Source of the DNA: Myxococcota bacterium | GTDB lineage: Bacteria; Myxococcota_A; UBA9160; PR03 | Direction of reading: 5' to 3' | Length of the DNA: 31,168 nt | NCBI GenBank assembly: GCA_041611735.1 | Contig: JBFIML010000045.1 | Coordinates: 1 to 31,168, forward strand | Part shown: positions 3,204 through 31,168 of the stretch, piece after piece | Layout: every line of letters begins with the position of its first letter | Position numbering within the stretch: the stretch's first letter is position 1 | Made by a program: the position numbers and the translations under genes | Notes under the pieces: model-generated | Seen by the model: the letters and a program-made list of their open reading frames with translations, nothing else | What the model was told of the DNA's origin: nothing | Databases searched by the model: none

Positions 3204-3245
3204 GATTCGCTTCTCCCCTCCGGATCCGTTGGGTTGGGATCCGGC

Positions 3246-3689
3246 CTACTCGTTGCGCATGGTCGAGGTCCCCACGAGCGTGATGCTCGAGGAGATCCCG
3301 GCGAGGCCCGGCAGGGCCTGGAACTGATACGGGGCGGTGGCCTGCACCTGCAGACCCTGCCCGCGCACGCACTCCAAGTTGTTGGTGGTGACGCTCACTG
3401 TAGCGGAGACCACCGAGGATGCGTAGCTCTGCACCGTGTTCGTGATGGCGGTCCGGACGTTGGCCGCGTTGCAGGGCGCGCGGAAGACGACGCCCACGCG
3501 CGCTCCCTCGCGAGCCGCATTGGAGAGCGTCTGCCACTGGGCGAACGCAATCCCGAACTCGGCGATCCCGAACAAGAGCAGCAGCAGGATCGGGGCCACG
3601 ATGGCCATCTCGACCATGGACGTTCCCCGTTCGCTGCGGCGTCGCCGCGCGCTGCGGCGGCAGGCCGTATCGGTGCTGTTCAAGCCCAT
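3246..3689 (-). CDS. tadE: TadE/TadG-family pseudopilin
   Basis: ERG|TSMVEMAIVAPILLLLLFGIAEFG...LSNAAREGAR signature; ATG 3689 overlaps the end of the peptidase gene. Confidence 0.88.
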   Translation of the reverse strand: MGLNSTDTACRRSARRRRSERGTSMVEMAIVAPILLLLLFGIAEFGIAFAQWQTLSNAAREGARVGVVFRAPCNAANVRTAITNTVQSYASSVVSATVSVTTNNLECVRGQGLQVQATAPYQFQALPGLAGISSSITLVGTSTMRNE

Positions 3690-4363
3690 GGGCTCCCCCA
3701 CAGTTGGTAGGTGCCGATCGCCAGCCCCAGGGTGACGGCGAAGGGGATGCCCCCGGCGGCCACGGACCCGGGCACCGGAGGCAGCCGGGTGAGGCGCCGG
3801 TTGGCGAGGGTCAGGACCAGGCTCCCCCACCAGCGCGCCAGGAGGTCCGGGAGGCCGCCGCGGACCGCCAGCCAGGCGAGGGCCACCACGCCCCCCCACA
3901 GCATCGCCCAGGTGAGCACCGGAACCAGGACCCCCGGGCCCCAGAGCGCCCCGAGGACCATGACGGCCTTCACGTCGCCGGCGCCGAACCAGCCCCTGGA
4001 GTAGGGAAGAACCAGGATCGCCAGGGCGCAGACCGCCCCGAGCAGCGCCGTGGCGAGGCCCGCCGCCCCGCCCCCGAGGGCCCCGTGCACGAGGGCCAGG
4101 CCGAAGGCCGGAAATGTGAGCCAGTTGGGAATGCGCCGCTCGCGCACGTCGCGCTCTACGGCGAGAAAGACGAAGGCCGCTGCCCACCCGAAGGCGGGCA
4201 GCGGCGCTTGACCTGCCGTGGCGATGACGCCTGCGCCCACCAGCGCGGCCGTACCGAGCGCGGCCGCCTGGCTGCGTACGTGCCCCGTGCTCAGCCTCCC
4301 CGGCTTCTGGCTCCGGGGCGCTGTTGCGCGGGGCTCGGACGGACTGAGCGCAAGCGTCTGCAT
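3680..4363 (-). CDS. cpaA: Prepilin peptidase CpaA/TadV (peptidase A24)
   Basis: Hydrophobic protein with D-x-R-x-R-R-I-P-N (ERDVRERRIPNWLT), GAGDVK and a C-terminal IPFAV motif; ATG 4363 follows the flp stop. Confidence 0.88.
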   Translation of the reverse strand: MQTLALSPSEPRATAPRSQKPGRLSTGHVRSQAAALGTAALVGAGVIATAGQAPLPAFGWAAAFVFLAVERDVRERRIPNWLTFPAFGLALVHGALGGGAAGLATALLGAVCALAILVLPYSRGWFGAGDVKAVMVLGALWGPGVLVPVLTWAMLWGGVVALAWLAVRGGLPDLLARWWGSLVLTLANRRLTRLPPVPGSVAAGGIPFAVTLGLAIGTYQLWGSPWA

Positions 4364-4373
4364 CCTTCTCTTC

Positions 4374-4559
4374 TTAGGAGCCGCCGCCGCCGCCGGCCGG
4401 GATCTGGGTCGCGATGCTCTGCATCGCCGCGCTGGTGTTCTGCCCGAGGAGCTGGAAGGCGGCAATCGCCGCAATCACCACTGCGGTGCCCACGACGGCC
4501 CACTCGACCGTCTCGAGGCCCTGCTCCTCACGCACGAACTGCTTGATTCCGTTCCACAT
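4374..4559 (-). CDS. flp: Flp family type IVb/IVc pilin
   Basis: 61 aa; leader ...FVREEQG|LETVEW followed by a hydrophobic helix; strong SD (GGAGG/GAGG) upstream; first gene of the tad operon. Confidence 0.9.
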   Translation of the reverse strand: MWNGIKQFVREEQGLETVEWAVVGTAVVIAAIAAFQLLGQNTSAAMQSIATQIPAGGGGGS

Positions 4560-4756
4560 GTTCCTCTTCCTCCAGACCTTTGCGCGAGGGGGCGCAAGCC
4601 TGGGTCGCTTGCCTCTGCAAACGACGTCTCACGCCCCATTCTACACTCCTCGAACGTGCCCCTGTGGCACATCGAGGTGACGCCCCAGCCCGCCCGCATG
4701 TTGGGAATCGACCGCGATCCCCTTCGATGGGGGGGGGCTGGGGTATCGCAGCAGCG

Positions 4757-4785
4757 ATCTTCTTAAGAATCGAGCCTTGTGTCAA
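4757..4785 (-). promoter_or_regulatory. Putative sigma70-type promoter of the flp/tad operon
   Basis: TTGACA (4785-4780), 17-nt spacer, GAAGAT (4762-4757) in an AT-rich patch; the -10 match is weak. Confidence 0.4.
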
Positions 4786-5077
4786 GTTAGTATGCAAAGA
4801 TGTCAAGAATTAATTACCTCGGCAGGCCAGTCGGTTCCTGCGGGGCGTCCCTCCCGCGGTCTGCTAGGCCCGGGACGGACGGGGAGAAGCCCTGATCGAA
4901 TCGACGGATCCAGAGTCGCTTGCCGGTTCTCCGCGGGGCCAGCCGAGACGTCGGACTGGGGGGAGGTTCCCGCGAAGTGGGCGCTCTGGCCCGTAACGGA
5001 GGCCGGCCGGGGTGCCACGTCTATACTGAGCCTTGGCGCCAGGGGGCGCGGCCGAGCCCACCGGGAGAGCGAACGGC

Positions 5078-5989
5078 GTGCGACAGCTCCTAGGCAGCCT
5101 CGAGGCCTTCCTCGTCGCATCCCAGAACCCGGACGGGGGCTGGGGAGGCCGGCGCGGGCAGACGAGCAACGCGGAGGCCACCGCCCTCGCCCTGGTCGCC
5201 CTCCGGCAGCTTCCTGCCCCGGACCAGGCGCAGCGTCTGGCCCGGGGCGTCGACTGGCTCGAGCGCCGCCAGCGGCCGGACGGGGCCTGGTCCTTCGCGG
5301 AGGGGCTGGACGAAGGCACCTGGGCCACGCCCCTCGTCTGCCTGGCCCTGCTGGACCTGGAGCGGAGCCCGGAGCGCATCCGCCGCGGCGCCCGCTGGCT
5401 GCTGGCCCTCGAGGGGCACCGCATGTCCTGGTGGCAGCGGCTGCTGCTGCGGCTCCTGCCCGAGGAACGCAAGGTTCAGGTGAGTCACGAGCTGGTGGGC
5501 TGGCCCTGGCGCCGGGGAAGCTTCAGCTGGGTGGAGCCGACGGCCTTCGCCGTCCTCCTGCTCAAGAAGCTGTCGGGCACGCTCGATGCAGGCGACGCCA
5601 CCGCGCGCATCCGCCAGGGAGAGCTCCTGCTCGCCGATCGCATGTGCGAGGGCGGCGGCTGGAACTACGGCAACCGGCGCGTGCTCGGCGAGATCCTGCA
5701 GCCGTATCCCGAGGTGACCGCGGTGGCGCTGCTGGCGCTCCAGGACCGCGCCGCCGACCCCGACGTGGCGCGCAGCCTCGAGCGGCTCCAGGCCATGCTG
5801 GCCGAGAGCGCGTCGGGTCTGAGCCTGGGCTGGTCGATGCTGTGTCTGTCCCTCCACGGGCGCGAGGCGGCGCGCTGGCGCGAGCTGCTGAGCGCGCGCT
5901 GGGAGCAGACCGGCTTCCTGGGCGAGACGCGCAGCGTCGCCCTGGCCGCCCTCGCCTGGACCGACGCCACTGCATGGCTGCGGGTGTGA
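5078..5989 (+). CDS. Prenyltransferase/squalene-cyclase (QW) repeat-containing protein
   Basis: Repeats QNPDGGW, QRPDGAW and MCEGGGWNYGN separated by amphipathic helices (alpha/alpha barrel); no DxDD cyclase motif. GTG 5078 has an upstream GGGAGAG; TTG 5033 is an alternative start. Confidence 0.8.
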   Translation: MRQLLGSLEAFLVASQNPDGGWGGRRGQTSNAEATALALVALRQLPAPDQAQRLARGVDWLERRQRPDGAWSFAEGLDEGTWATPLVCLALLDLERSPERIRRGARWLLALEGHRMSWWQRLLLRLLPEERKVQVSHELVGWPWRRGSFSWVEPTAFAVLLLKKLSGTLDAGDATARIRQGELLLADRMCEGGGWNYGNRRVLGEILQPYPEVTAVALLALQDRAADPDVARSLERLQAMLAESASGLSLGWSMLCLSLHGREAARWRELLSARWEQTGFLGETRSVALAALAWTDATAWLRV

Positions 5990-28334: not shown

Positions 28335-28487
28335 GGAGCGCGAGCCTAGCAGCGGACCTTCGCCCGCTGGCTCGCGGCGGGGACGAGTCCTGGGCTCACG
28401 GGTGACGACGCCCGCCGCGGAGCCGGCGTGGGTGTCGCCCCGCGCTGTCCTATGTTCCCGACGTTTCCTGGGCAGGAGGACGCTCCA

Positions 28488-29255
28488 TTGGAGCAGGCCC
28501 TCGGCGCGCTCGCGACCTGCTGGCGTGGCGCTCGCAGCGTGGTGGTGCTCACCGGGGCCGGCCTCTCCACGGCTTCCGGCATCCCCGACTTCCGCTCGCC
28601 GGGCGGACGCTGGGAGCGCTACCAGCCGGTCCCGTTCGCGGACTTCCTGGCCCGGGCCTCGGCCCGGGAGGACTACTGGCGCTACAAAGGGGAAACCTGG
28701 CGGCTGATCCGGGCCGCCCAGCCGAACGCCGCCCATCGCGCCCTGGCGGAGCTCGGCCGCGCCCGACGCGTGCACCTGCTCGTCACCCAGAACGTGGACG
28801 GTCTGCACGAGCGCAGCGGTTTCCTCCCCGAGCACCTCGTCACGATCCACGGGACGGACGCCGCGGTCGTCTGCCTCTCGTGCGGACGCCGCGAGCCCCG
28901 GGAGCTCGCCCAGGAGCAATGGGAGTCCGGCACGGCCGTGCCGCGCTGCACCTGCGGCGGCTTCTGGAAGCCCGCCACCATCTCCTTCGGCCAGCGCCTC
29001 GTGCCCGAAGACCTGGAGCGTGCTCTTCGGGAGGCGTCGGCCTGCGACCTCTTCGTGGCCGCGGGCACTTCGCTGGGGGTCGGTCCGGTGAACGGGATGT
29101 TTGCGGCAGCCGAGCAGGCCGGCGCGACGACGGCCATCCTGACCGCCTCGGAGACTCCCTTCGACGCGGAGGCGAGCTGGAAGCTCGAGGCGCCGGTGGA
29201 GCAACTGCTGCCCGAACTCGCCAGACGCGTGCTCTCGAAGCGGCTGGCCTGCTAG
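28488..29255 (+). CDS. NAD-dependent protein deacylase (Sir2/CobB family)
   Basis: TGAGLSTASGIPDFRS, PNAAH, TQNVDGLH, IHG, CxxC...CxC Zn site, KPATISFG, GTSL; TTG 28488 with AGGAGG 8 nt upstream. Confidence 0.92.
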   Translation: MEQALGALATCWRGARSVVVLTGAGLSTASGIPDFRSPGGRWERYQPVPFADFLARASAREDYWRYKGETWRLIRAAQPNAAHRALAELGRARRVHLLVTQNVDGLHERSGFLPEHLVTIHGTDAAVVCLSCGRREPRELAQEQWESGTAVPRCTCGGFWKPATISFGQRLVPEDLERALREASACDLFVAAGTSLGVGPVNGMFAAAEQAGATTAILTASETPFDAEASWKLEAPVEQLLPELARRVLSKRLAC

Positions 29256-30688
29256 AGCGTCGGCCAGTGGGCGGCCCAGGGCCGCTCCTGCTCGAAGGCC
29301 CAGGCCGCCTGCAGCACCAAGTCGTCCCGGTGGCGCGGGCCGACGATCTGCAGGCCCACCGGAAGACCCGCCTTCGAGAATCCGGCGCGCACCGTCGCCG
29401 CCGGATGCCAGGACAGATTGAAAGGCATGCTGAAGCTGCCCACGTTCGCAGCCGGCTGGCGTCGCCCCTCCACCTCCTCGGTGAGGGGGCCCTTGGCCGG
29501 GGGCGGGTCGTAGGGGACGGTCGGCGTCAGGAGCAGATCGTGGTGCTCGAAGAGGTCCGCGCACCAGCGGTTCAGCTCCTCACGCCGGCGACGGAACTCC
29601 GCGTAGCGCTCCGGCGTCATCCGGGCCCCCTGCTTCACCGCCCACAGGAAGGCGCGCCCGAACTCGGACTCGTGCTCCGGGAGCAGCGGCGACAGGTGGC
29701 CGAGGAGCTGGAAGACGTTGATCAACCCCCAGTCGCGCGCCGGCTCGGGCGGGCCGGCGGCGAGCGGCTCGACCGCGTGGCCGAGCTTCTCGAACACCCG
29801 TACGGCTTCTGCCACCCGCTCCGCCACGTCGGACTGCACCACCGCGTAGCCCAGGTCCGGCGAGAAGGCGATGCGCAGGTGGTCGGGCAGGGCACGCAAC
29901 CGCTCCCGATAGCTCAGCCCGGGATGCGGCAGGGAGTTCGGGTCGAGCGGGTGTGCCCCGACGGTCAGATCGAGGTGCAGGGCCGCATCCTCGACGCTGC
30001 GCGTGAGCGGGCCGACCACCGAGGTGTCGTCCATGGCCCACAGCGCATCGGGGCCGTGGGGGATGCGGCCGTAGCTCGGCTTCAGACCGAAGCAGCCGGT
30101 GAAGGAGGCCGGGATTCGGATCGAACCGCCCCCGTCGCTGGCCGTCACCAGCGGGACCAGGGCCCCGGCGATGGCTGCCGAGGAGCCTCCGCTCGAGCCG
30201 CCGGGCGTGCGCTCCAGATTCCACGGGTTGCGCGTCACGCCGAACAGCAGGTTCTTGGTGATGGCCGTATAGCCGAACTCGGGCGCGTTGGTCTTGCCGA
30301 CGACGATGGCTCCGGCCGCCACCAGCCGCTCCACCTGGACCGAATGACGCGACGCCAGGTTGTCCTTGAACGGCAGCGAACCGTGCGAGGTGACGAGCCC
30401 CGCTACGTCCTCCAGGTCCTTGACCGCCAGGGGCACGCCCTCCAGCGGACGGGCCTCGCCGCGGGCAAAGCGCTCGGCGGCGGCGCGAGCCTCCGCCCGG
30501 AGCGCATCGGCGTCGCGCAGGGTGGTGAGCGCATTGAGCGGCTCGTCCGCGGCGGCGATACGAGCCAGGGTCGCCTCCATCAGGTCGACCGGAGACAGCT
30601 CCCGGCGGGCCAGCAAGGCGACCAGCTCCGTGAGCGGCCTGCGGAGCAGGGCGGCGGCCGCGTCCTCCGGCGTGGGTCTTCGCTGCAT
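29252..30688 (-). CDS. Amidase signature family enzyme
   Basis: GVPLAVKD, GKTNAPEFG, TRNPW, PGGSSGGS, SDGGGSIRIPA (Lys-Ser-Ser triad), GLPVGLQ; ATG 30688 with GGAG upstream. Confidence 0.92.
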   Translation of the reverse strand: MQRRPTPEDAAAALLRRPLTELVALLARRELSPVDLMEATLARIAAADEPLNALTTLRDADALRAEARAAAERFARGEARPLEGVPLAVKDLEDVAGLVTSHGSLPFKDNLASRHSVQVERLVAAGAIVVGKTNAPEFGYTAITKNLLFGVTRNPWNLERTPGGSSGGSSAAIAGALVPLVTASDGGGSIRIPASFTGCFGLKPSYGRIPHGPDALWAMDDTSVVGPLTRSVEDAALHLDLTVGAHPLDPNSLPHPGLSYRERLRALPDHLRIAFSPDLGYAVVQSDVAERVAEAVRVFEKLGHAVEPLAAGPPEPARDWGLINVFQLLGHLSPLLPEHESEFGRAFLWAVKQGARMTPERYAEFRRRREELNRWCADLFEHHDLLLTPTVPYDPPPAKGPLTEEVEGRRQPAANVGSFSMPFNLSWHPAATVRAGFSKAGLPVGLQIVGPRHRDDLVLQAAWAFEQERPWAAHWPTL

Positions 30689-30815
30689 CGGGCTCTCCTC
30701 CCGGCCGGGTCTGCCGCCCGGCCCGCTACCCGCGCACGTCTGGATACCACAGCCGGGCCCAGGGCGGGGCGGCCGCGCGACCCGGTTTTCCCTTTCGCTG
30801 GCGGTCGGGAAGCCG

Positions 30816-30821
30816 TATGAT
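30816..30821 (+). promoter_or_regulatory. Putative -10 element of the histone gene
   Basis: TATGAT about 70 nt upstream of ATG 30892; no convincing -35 element. Confidence 0.35.
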
Positions 30822-30891
30822 GCGCCCTCGCAAGCAAGGCGCAGCGTGCGCCGAGCACCGGTCGCGCCCAAGCGCGACGCAGGGGGGAAGG

Positions 30892-31107
30892 ATGGCAGCG
30901 AGAAGGAAGGCCGCCGCTCGACGAGCGTCGAAGAGCGCGGGCGATCTCATCATCTCGAAGTCCCGCACCAAGGCCGCCGTGCGGAAGTGCAACGTGGGGG
31001 GCGACTTCTACGGAGCGCTCGACAAGCACGTGCGCAACCTGCTCGGCCAGGCCGAGCAGCGCGCCCTGGGCAACAAGCGCAAGACCCTGAAGCCGGTCGA
31101 CCTCTAG
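30892..31107 (+). CDS. Bacterial histone-fold protein (alpha3-truncated, face-to-face-like) with basic N-terminal tail
   Basis: 71 aa MAARRKAAARRASKSAGDLIISKSRTKAAVRKCNVGGDFYGALDKHVRNLLGQAEQRALGNKRKTLKPVDL: alpha1, L1 (NV), long alpha2, hallmark R-K-T-x-x-x-x-D-L ending; purine-rich SD (GGGGAAGG) before ATG. Confidence 0.85.
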   Translation: MAARRKAAARRASKSAGDLIISKSRTKAAVRKCNVGGDFYGALDKHVRNLLGQAEQRALGNKRKTLKPVDL

Positions 31108-31168
31108 GTCGGCTCGGCCGATGGTCCGCCGCCCGTGCGGCGGGCCTGGGGGCCCGCGTGCCGCTTGC

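Follow-up and report, generated by a model that had tools for sequence, protein, structure and literature searches.

What does a short, very basic open reading frame at the end of a contig from an uncultured marine Myxococcota lineage encode, and if its product is a histone, what would the charged tail at its N-terminus be for? The ORF lies in contig JBFIML010000045.1, positions 1 to 31,168, a stretch of DNA of 31,168 nucleotides that we refer to as the window. It runs on the forward strand from an ATG at position 30,892 to a TAG stop at 31,105–31,107 (gene 30,892..31,107; 71 codons plus stop), is single copy and has 1153 homologues. The product is a 71-amino-acid protein, MAARRKAAARRASKSAGDLIISKSRTKAAVRKCNVGGDFYGALDKHVRNLLGQAEQRALGNKRKTLKPVDL, with a computed pI of ~11.3 for the whole chain and 10.2 for residues 18–71. 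A preliminary description made from the DNA letters had proposed a 71-aa basic ORF at this place that encodes a bacterial histone with a eukaryote-like tail, and the sequence is exactly as claimed there. We conclude that the ORF very likely encodes a face-to-face (FtF) member of the α3-truncated prokaryotic histones, which would assemble into a closed tetramer, bind and wrap DNA non-specifically, and add electrostatic affinity through four basic tails.

Is the frame real at all? The G+C content is 71–73% over the histone gene and its neighbours, and at this composition long ORFs open in all six frames; 15 overlapping ORFs are found in the region, which speaks for a spurious frame. Against it stand the 1153 homologues with the same length, start and stop, and protein cores that are 64–84% identical across records labelled as several phyla. 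Conservation of this kind effectively refutes a chance ORF, to which we assign a probability close to nil. The uniform G+C content also means that there is no compositional sign of recent transfer.

The choice of start codon decides whether the tail is part of the protein. An alternative in-frame ATG at 30,817 would yield a 96-aa form. We aligned 42 homologues, chosen by eye among the 120 listed of the 1153; M1, A2 and another 26 columns show no variation, A3 and K6 almost none. MAA are the first residues in 114 of 119 parsed homologues (119 of the 120 listed could be parsed), with arginine or lysine at position 4 in all of them. An in-frame stop lies 0–8 codons 5′ of the aligned start in 20 of 72 distinct homologous ORFs, so that long N-terminal extensions are excluded in those. 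Downstream of 30,892 the first in-frame ATG, GTG or TTG is the GTG of V30, within helix α1; the tail would therefore be translated whenever the fold is, since skipping it would destroy the fold. Taken together, the comparison of homologues supports the 71-aa start. The preliminary description had named a true start downstream of the tail as the outcome that would undo its reading, and the conserved MAA, the upstream stops and the position of the next start codon all speak against that. It had also expected annotation pipelines to miss the gene or extend it to 96 aa: the database entry has the 71-aa form, which does not bear this out for the gene itself, and an upstream extension does occur in 7 of the 119 parsed relatives.

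The signals around the gene are sparse. A Shine-Dalgarno-like purine-rich (G-rich) stretch, AGGGGGGAAGG, lies immediately 5′ of the ATG (30,881..30,891, forward strand), and GGAGG or GGGGGG-like stretches were seen by eye 5′ of the start in most homologous loci. No σ70-like promoter was found upstream of the histone gene. The intergenic region between the histone gene and a divergent amidase gene (30,689..30,880) contains one terminator-like hairpin, which is followed by a T-rich run (30,771–30,787, forward strand) and lies ~100 bases 5′ of the histone start; no forward-strand gene ends there. A terminator scan returned two weak terminator-like sites, neither of them 3′ of the histone gene. 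A 10-bp G+C stem-loop at 31,123..31,146 (forward strand) is a possible terminator, with no T-run after it and a z of −1.1 versus shuffled sequences, which is not significant. The window, and with it the contig, ends 61 bases past the histone stop.

What family does the protein belong to? A database search at E ≤ 0.01 returned the 1153 proteins mentioned above, almost all of them 65–73 aa long; among the 120 listed, 14 carry the JGI name 'histone H3/H4'. After clustering at 50%, the wider family comprises 465 representatives at E ≤ 0.001, with 10 at E ≤ 1e-30. No family matched in Pfam, searched with the 71-aa and 96-aa forms, or in NCBIfam, searched with the 71-aa form, even at E ≤ 10. PF09123 (DUF1931), the label given to the Leptospira perolatii histone HLp by its PDB depositors, matches neither our protein nor anything else in the genome. 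Searched against the PDB, the single sequence finds the Thermococcus kodakarensis histone HTkC at E = 0.083 and HLp at E = 0.034. The profile of the 42-sequence alignment matches HTkC (9F2C) at E = 1.4e-6 and HLp (9QT0) at E = 1e-3 over residues 13–70, and the next match is at E = 0.7. A profile search, which the preliminary description had advised, thus leads to solved histones in the PDB and to nothing in Pfam or NCBIfam.

The position within the histones follows from a small set of residues. According to Schwab et al. 2024, the FtF class is defined by a histone fold with a shortened α2 and a truncated α3 of 3–4 residues, an RxTxxxxD clamp and the dimer–dimer residues R48 and N52 of the class logo, and the family by a predicted tetramer that is closed, each dimer making contacts through both of its sides (PMC11390915); in HLp the tetramer residues are R49, N53 and R55 (PMC12701072). 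All 42 sequences of our alignment share R57, N61, R63, T65 and D70. Their spacing is that of R48, N52, R54, T56 and D61 in the FtF logo (PMC11390915) and also that of R49, N53, R55 and D62 in HLp (PMC12701072), and the stretch RKTLKPVD supplies the clamp pair R63…D70. The nucleosomal type is set apart from our protein by the absence of any Pfam match at E ≤ 10, the histone models CBFD_NFYB_HMF and Histone included, and by the length of α3, 3 residues versus ~10 in a full-length helix. The bacterial dimer type, represented by HBb/Bd0055, is set apart by the presence and invariance of R57 and N61 and by a tetramer that is predicted with confidence.

The preliminary description had read a histone fold, an R…D salt-bridge motif and the truncated face-to-face class out of the letters. 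All three hold up: the fold in the matches to HTkC and HLp and in the fold of a doublet relative (see below), the motif in the invariance of R63, T65 and D70 in all 42 sequences, and the class in the invariant R57 and N61, the matches to solved FtF histones and a tetramer prediction that passes its controls. Its further claim of a distant kinship with Bdellovibrio Bd0055 fared less well, as the 8 PDB sequences at E ≤ 10 include no such entry; that link rests on the published classification of the α3 family (PMC11390915).

A natural relative brings further structural detail. A genome of the same order (G212) encodes a doublet: a single ORF of 125 aa holds two FtF-like folds, nearly identical to each other and connected by a 10-residue linker (L096:423–797, reverse strand, which is G212:C50). 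Each half is 68% identical to the 71-aa histone, and the N-terminus is short and weakly basic, without the usual tail. This doublet may be an assembly artefact from a tandem repeat. Among the 50% representatives there are 14 further doublets of ~117–130 aa. Modelled with these 14 as the alignment, the doublet reaches a pLDDT of 92.8 and a pTM of 0.85, and its PDB fold search gives 12 matches at E ≤ 0.001, every one a histone doublet or a pair of histones in a single chain, led by the Methanopyrus kandleri histone 1f1e (E = 1.3e-4). The model supports a canonical histone pseudo-dimer for the family.

For the 71-aa protein itself, AF2 draws helices at residues 23–33, 37–60 and 68–70. Helix α1 (residues 23–33) is encoded by 30,958..30,990, and the long helix α2 (residues 37–60), which carries the putative tetramerisation residue R57 at its C-terminal end according to AF2, the alignment and the tetramer prediction, by 31,000..31,071. 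The last segment (31,072..31,104; residues 61–71, NKRKTLKPVDL) holds N61, loop L2 with the R63…D70 clamp and T65, and an α3 of residues 68–70; the truncation of this helix to 3 residues agrees with the preliminary description. A fold search with the monomer model returned no significant match. When four copies were predicted together with the alignment supplied, ipSAE was 0.87 in each of three runs versus 0.00 for the best of three controls. The score mark used here, reached by 20 of 30 proteins solved as one-chain pairs and by 1 of 23 solved as single chains, was calibrated with two copies, not four. Between the runs at least 94% of contacts agree, and partner pLDDT is at least 82. The predicted contacts comprise a handshake dimer over residues 17–71 and a second, smaller interface at residues 56–57, 60–61, 63, 67 and 69–70, which is the FtF dimer–dimer interface described for HLp (PMC12701072). 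The preliminary description had foreseen a face-to-face tetramer from such a check, and this is what the prediction gives; since solved FtF tetramers (HTkC, HLp) exist, the pass indicates likeness and may be memory of those structures.

The DNA-contacting residues reported for HLp (PMC12701072) can be carried over by an HMMER alignment, a mapping that we infer and that assumes PDB chain numbering to be the paper's numbering plus 2. HLp A13, S14 and K15 would correspond to K23, S24 and R25 here, K17 to K27, K21 to R31, T27 and G29 of loop L1 to V35 and G37, and T56 and T57 of loop L2 to K64 and T65. R25 and K27 are invariant in the 42-sequence alignment.

On these grounds the following mechanism can be proposed. 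Two chains would pair in a histone handshake (α1 23–33, α2 37–60, α3 68–70), and two such dimers would close into a ring-like homotetramer through the end of α2, L2 and the C-terminus (R57, G60, N61, R63 and V69–L71), with the R63–D70 clamp maintaining the shape of L2. If it behaves as HLp does, the tetramer would bind DNA of any sequence and wrap ~60 bp of it (PMC12701072). The path of the DNA would follow a basic rim made of the N-terminus of α1 (K23, S24, R25), K27, R31 and loops L1 and L2. From the DNA-facing end of α1, four flexible tails per tetramer would emanate, each with a charge of +6 and no acidic residue; their most likely contribution is to neutralise charge and to raise the affinity by non-specific electrostatics. 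The histone would act as a nucleoid-associated protein beside two HU/IHF homologues. Our data show the gene and its start, its family, the conserved interface residues, a predicted tetramer and a near-universal single copy in the class; that the Myxococcota histone binds and wraps DNA as a tetramer, is abundant and uses a disordered tail in this way is what we infer.

How constant is the tail? It spans residues 1–17, MAARRKAAARRASKSAG (30,892..30,942, forward strand), and has a net charge of +6 and no acidic residue. Its basic residues are R4, R5, K6, R10, R11 and K14; AARR occurs twice, and there are serines at positions 13 and 15. The claim of an N-terminal, basic, low-complexity tail is thus borne out, six of the 17 residues being K or R. 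If tails are taken to end one residue ahead of the LII motif, those of the 119 parsed relatives are 12–22 residues long (median 17) and are made up mainly of A (32%), K (25%), R (14%), G (12%) and S (6%); K+R per tail ranges from 3 to 11 (median 6), and D or E precedes the boundary residue in none of the 119. The opening is MAA[RK][RK]K in 114 of 119, the first six residues being MAARKK in 70 and, as here, MAARRK in 26. A survey of tail conservation, suggested by the preliminary description, thus finds a conserved opening and tails free of acidic residues. Records labelled as other phyla also have basic tails, of different sequence and length, for example MAKKK… in Eisenbacteria-labelled and an 8-residue (V/M)AKKGK… in Methylomirabilota/NC10-labelled records. 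In the AF2 model the tail has a pLDDT of 52–58, with residues 2–16 drawn as a low-confidence helix, and the contacts predicted with confidence in the tetramer do not involve it.

As a novelty the tail was overstated in the preliminary description: according to Schwab et al. 2024, most bacterial FtF histones have basic 'H3-like positively charged tails', and FtF histones of Myxococcota are in print in the same paper (PMC11390915). The near-invariant MAA[RK][RK]K opening may be new, and it may also already be contained in the supplementary figures of that paper (Supplementary Fig. 13).

The host genome is a 4.09-Mb assembly in 118 contigs, 95% complete, with the histone gene in a single copy. 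It also has two genes of the HU/IHF family (G000:C7:27358–27627, reverse strand, and G000:C17:55694–55963, forward strand), so that the histone coexists with classical nucleoid proteins. By profile the histone was found in 39 of 41 relatives' genomes. At E ≤ 1e-10, 141 of the 151 genomes sampled from the class have it; among the 104 of high quality (at least 90% complete, at most 5% contamination) the count is 102. One genome of the same order (G024, 99% complete) has no histone match; it carries 11,484 masked bases, and the gene may be masked, and its ortholog of the Sir2 gene discussed below lies at C118:17486–18235. In the phylum sample 63 of 301 genomes have the histone, nearly all of them in the same order or in one further family (f13) of the same class; six matches in that sample fall outside the class and are much weaker (E 5e-11 to 8e-4).

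When species genomes were scanned with a pattern, 273 stretches encoding a relative came up. The best 80 of these 273 have cores 64–84% identical and carry the labels Myxococcota/Deltaproteobacteria, Eisenbacteria, Krumholzibacteriia, Latescibacterota, Planctomycetota and Methylomirabilota; we have doubts about some of the labels, for instance 'uncultured Spirochaetales'. Few bacterial proteins would be expected to keep a core identity of 64–84% across phylum labels (L024, L036, L038, L050, L073, L089–L092). Either transfer from phylum to phylum or strong constraint could account for it. The sequencing runs listed as containing the stretch are all of DNA, mainly marine metagenomes, with no RNA run among them.

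The gene neighbourhood contains one candidate partner. A Sir2-family NAD-dependent protein deacylase, SIR2-B, is encoded at 28,428..29,255 on the forward strand, 1.6 kb upstream of the histone (Pfam SIR2, E = 5.3e-36); its best NCBIfam matches are CobB-type deacylases, all under their cut-offs, and it is the second Sir2 paralogue of the genome, the other gene lying on contig C71. Between SIR2-B and the histone lies the amidase gene (29,252..30,688, reverse strand; Pfam Amidase, E = 3.4e-100), divergent from the histone gene. The amidase is the most constant neighbour of the histone and has no obvious functional link to it. In loci labelled Myxococcota or Deltaproteobacteria, a convergent DUF6178 gene lies 3′ of the histone in 7 of 9 examined (~3220–5480, reverse strand, in L017, L018, L020, L031, L034 and L059; 4880–6013, reverse strand, in L015), often with a NUDIX gene next to it; in the source genome DUF6178 is on another contig (C1:3006–4037), where it may still be a neighbour of the histone, given that the window stops 61 bases past the histone gene. 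A ZZ-domain reader has been suggested by Schwab et al. 2024 (PMC11390915), and a search for PF00569 found no match in the 95%-complete genome.

The main alternatives concern the assembly of the protein and its role in the cell. A histone of the HBb/Bd0055 type would remain a dimer that bends DNA, as HU/IHF does, and would form no DNA-wrapping tetramer; it would share the α3-truncated fold class and the RKT…D motif with our protein (PMC11390915), and the tetramer prediction may, as noted, be a memory of solved FtF structures. We nevertheless hold a dimer-only protein to be quite unlikely: bacterial dimer histones are described as lacking R48 and N52 (PMC11390915), the equivalents of which, R57 and N61, are invariant here and lie in the predicted interface, and the profile matches HTkC and HLp, with no HBb entry among the 8 PDB rows at E ≤ 10. 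Less probable still would be a small basic protein that keeps the histone fold and works outside chromatin, as a specific transcription factor or in association with RNA or ribosomes. Histone folds do serve elsewhere, and SOS and TAF-like domains are among the fold matches of the doublet; against such a role stand the lack of extra domains, the basic residues conserved at the HLp DNA-contact positions, the near-universal single-copy presence of the gene in the class, and the non-specific DNA binding of HLp and HTkC (PMC12701072, PMC11390915). We prefer a tetrameric FtF histone that would bind DNA.

On top of this main explanation, the tail could be a platform for regulated modification, with lysine acetylation weakening DNA binding and SIR2-B removing the marks. 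A precedent exists in Streptomyces, where HupS, an HU homologue, is reported to bind DNA more strongly through the action of the sirtuin CobB1 (PMC11229371). In addition to its position in the window, 1.6 kb upstream and on the same strand, SIR2-B has orthologues (at least 61% identity, E ≤ 1e-100) in 24 of 151 class genomes, 23 of which also show the histone; in 14 of these 23, from four taxonomic families, the gene lies 0.17–2.9 kb upstream of the histone on the same strand, and the gap shrinks to ~0.2 kb in G027, G261, G350, G389 and L018, with the two genes adjacent in L018. Several observations weigh on the other side. Of the 141 class genomes with the histone, at least 117 show no SIR2-B orthologue at that level, and 9 of the 23 genomes with both genes have them on different contigs. 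Synteny extends over the whole neighbourhood, and of 80 related loci 31 have a homologue of the unrelated amidase (at least 65% identity) upstream of the histone, versus 10 with SIR2-B. No Sir2 gene was found within 3 kb of the histone in 5 loci examined from other phyla, and the relatives are non-independent samples. In the window the opposite-strand amidase separates the two genes, so SIR2-B and the histone are not co-transcribed here. The tail itself offers only two lysines, K6 and K14, and is dominated by arginine. Among the papers listed by our search of the literature on bacterial FtF histones and acetylation, none connects such a histone to a sirtuin; the idea may still have been published. 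We regard a modification platform as unlikely, and the linkage of SIR2-B and histone as conserved synteny and a weak functional lead for tail regulation, because most histone-bearing genomes show no SIR2-B, the amidase is the commoner neighbour, the 5 loci from other phyla have no Sir2 gene nearby, and the relatives are not independent of one another.

How does the tetrameric FtF histone proposed here compare with known systems? HLp (PDB 9QT0–9QT2) is, like our protein, a short bacterial singlet with a truncated α3, an RD clamp and an N-terminal extension, and its R49, N53 and R55 correspond to R57, N61 and R63 here, with basic residues at the aligned DNA-contact positions (PMC12701072). The two are close at the motif level only: the first seven residues of HLp are unresolved in the crystal (PMC12701072), whereas the tail here has 17 residues and is strongly basic. 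HLp has also been characterised as a protein, whereas the histone of this Myxococcota lineage is known from its gene and from predictions. HTkC is the best solved match and shares the motifs FY.aL, RA and RKTL; it forms the torus-shaped tetramer that is predicted here, but is archaeal, 59 aa long and tail-less (PMC11390915), whereas our protein is bacterial and tailed. In the account of the same paper, archaeal FtF histones are generally without tails (PMC11390915).

HBb/Bd0055 of Bdellovibrio bacteriovorus belongs to the same α3-truncated superfamily, has the RKT…D motif and is a bacterial nucleoid protein, but is described as a DNA-bending dimer without R48 and N52 of the FtF logo (PMC11390915). 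HupS and our protein are both nucleoid proteins with a low-complexity basic extension, lysine/alanine-rich and C-terminal in HupS, the core of which is HU and unrelated to histones. With the tails of eukaryotic core histones the tail shares its N-terminal position on a histone fold, its basic character and its richness in K, R, A, G and S; it is much shorter, and the likeness carries no sign of common descent. We know of no writers or readers for the bacterial-type tail found here.

FtF histones in Myxococcota were published in 2024 (Schwab et al., PMC11390915), and DNA wrapping of ~60 bp by a bacterial FtF tetramer, that of HLp, in 2025 (Nat Commun, PMC12701072). With the bacterial FtF histone, its H3-like tail, its presence in Myxococcota and DNA wrapping all in print since 2024–2025, the find is genuine but largely expected and of modest interest, and a specialist would find the histone unsurprising.

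A bolder reading is that in part of the class the tailed FtF histone and a dedicated SIR2-B form a conserved pair that sets tail acetylation, and hence nucleoid compaction. We think this improbable; if true, bacteria would have their own version of the control that sirtuins exert over histone tails, and the core identity of 64–84% across phylum labels would then reflect histone-like constraint. The histone itself is very probably a major chromatin protein throughout an uncultured class of Myxococcota found mostly in the sea or in sediment. The annotation is useful, as the protein is missed by both Pfam and NCBIfam. The clade also provides a natural series for testing the role of basic tails in bacterial histones, with tail lengths from 8 to ~27 residues, natural doublets that are poor in tail, and both genomes in which a sirtuin gene adjoins the histone and genomes in which none does.
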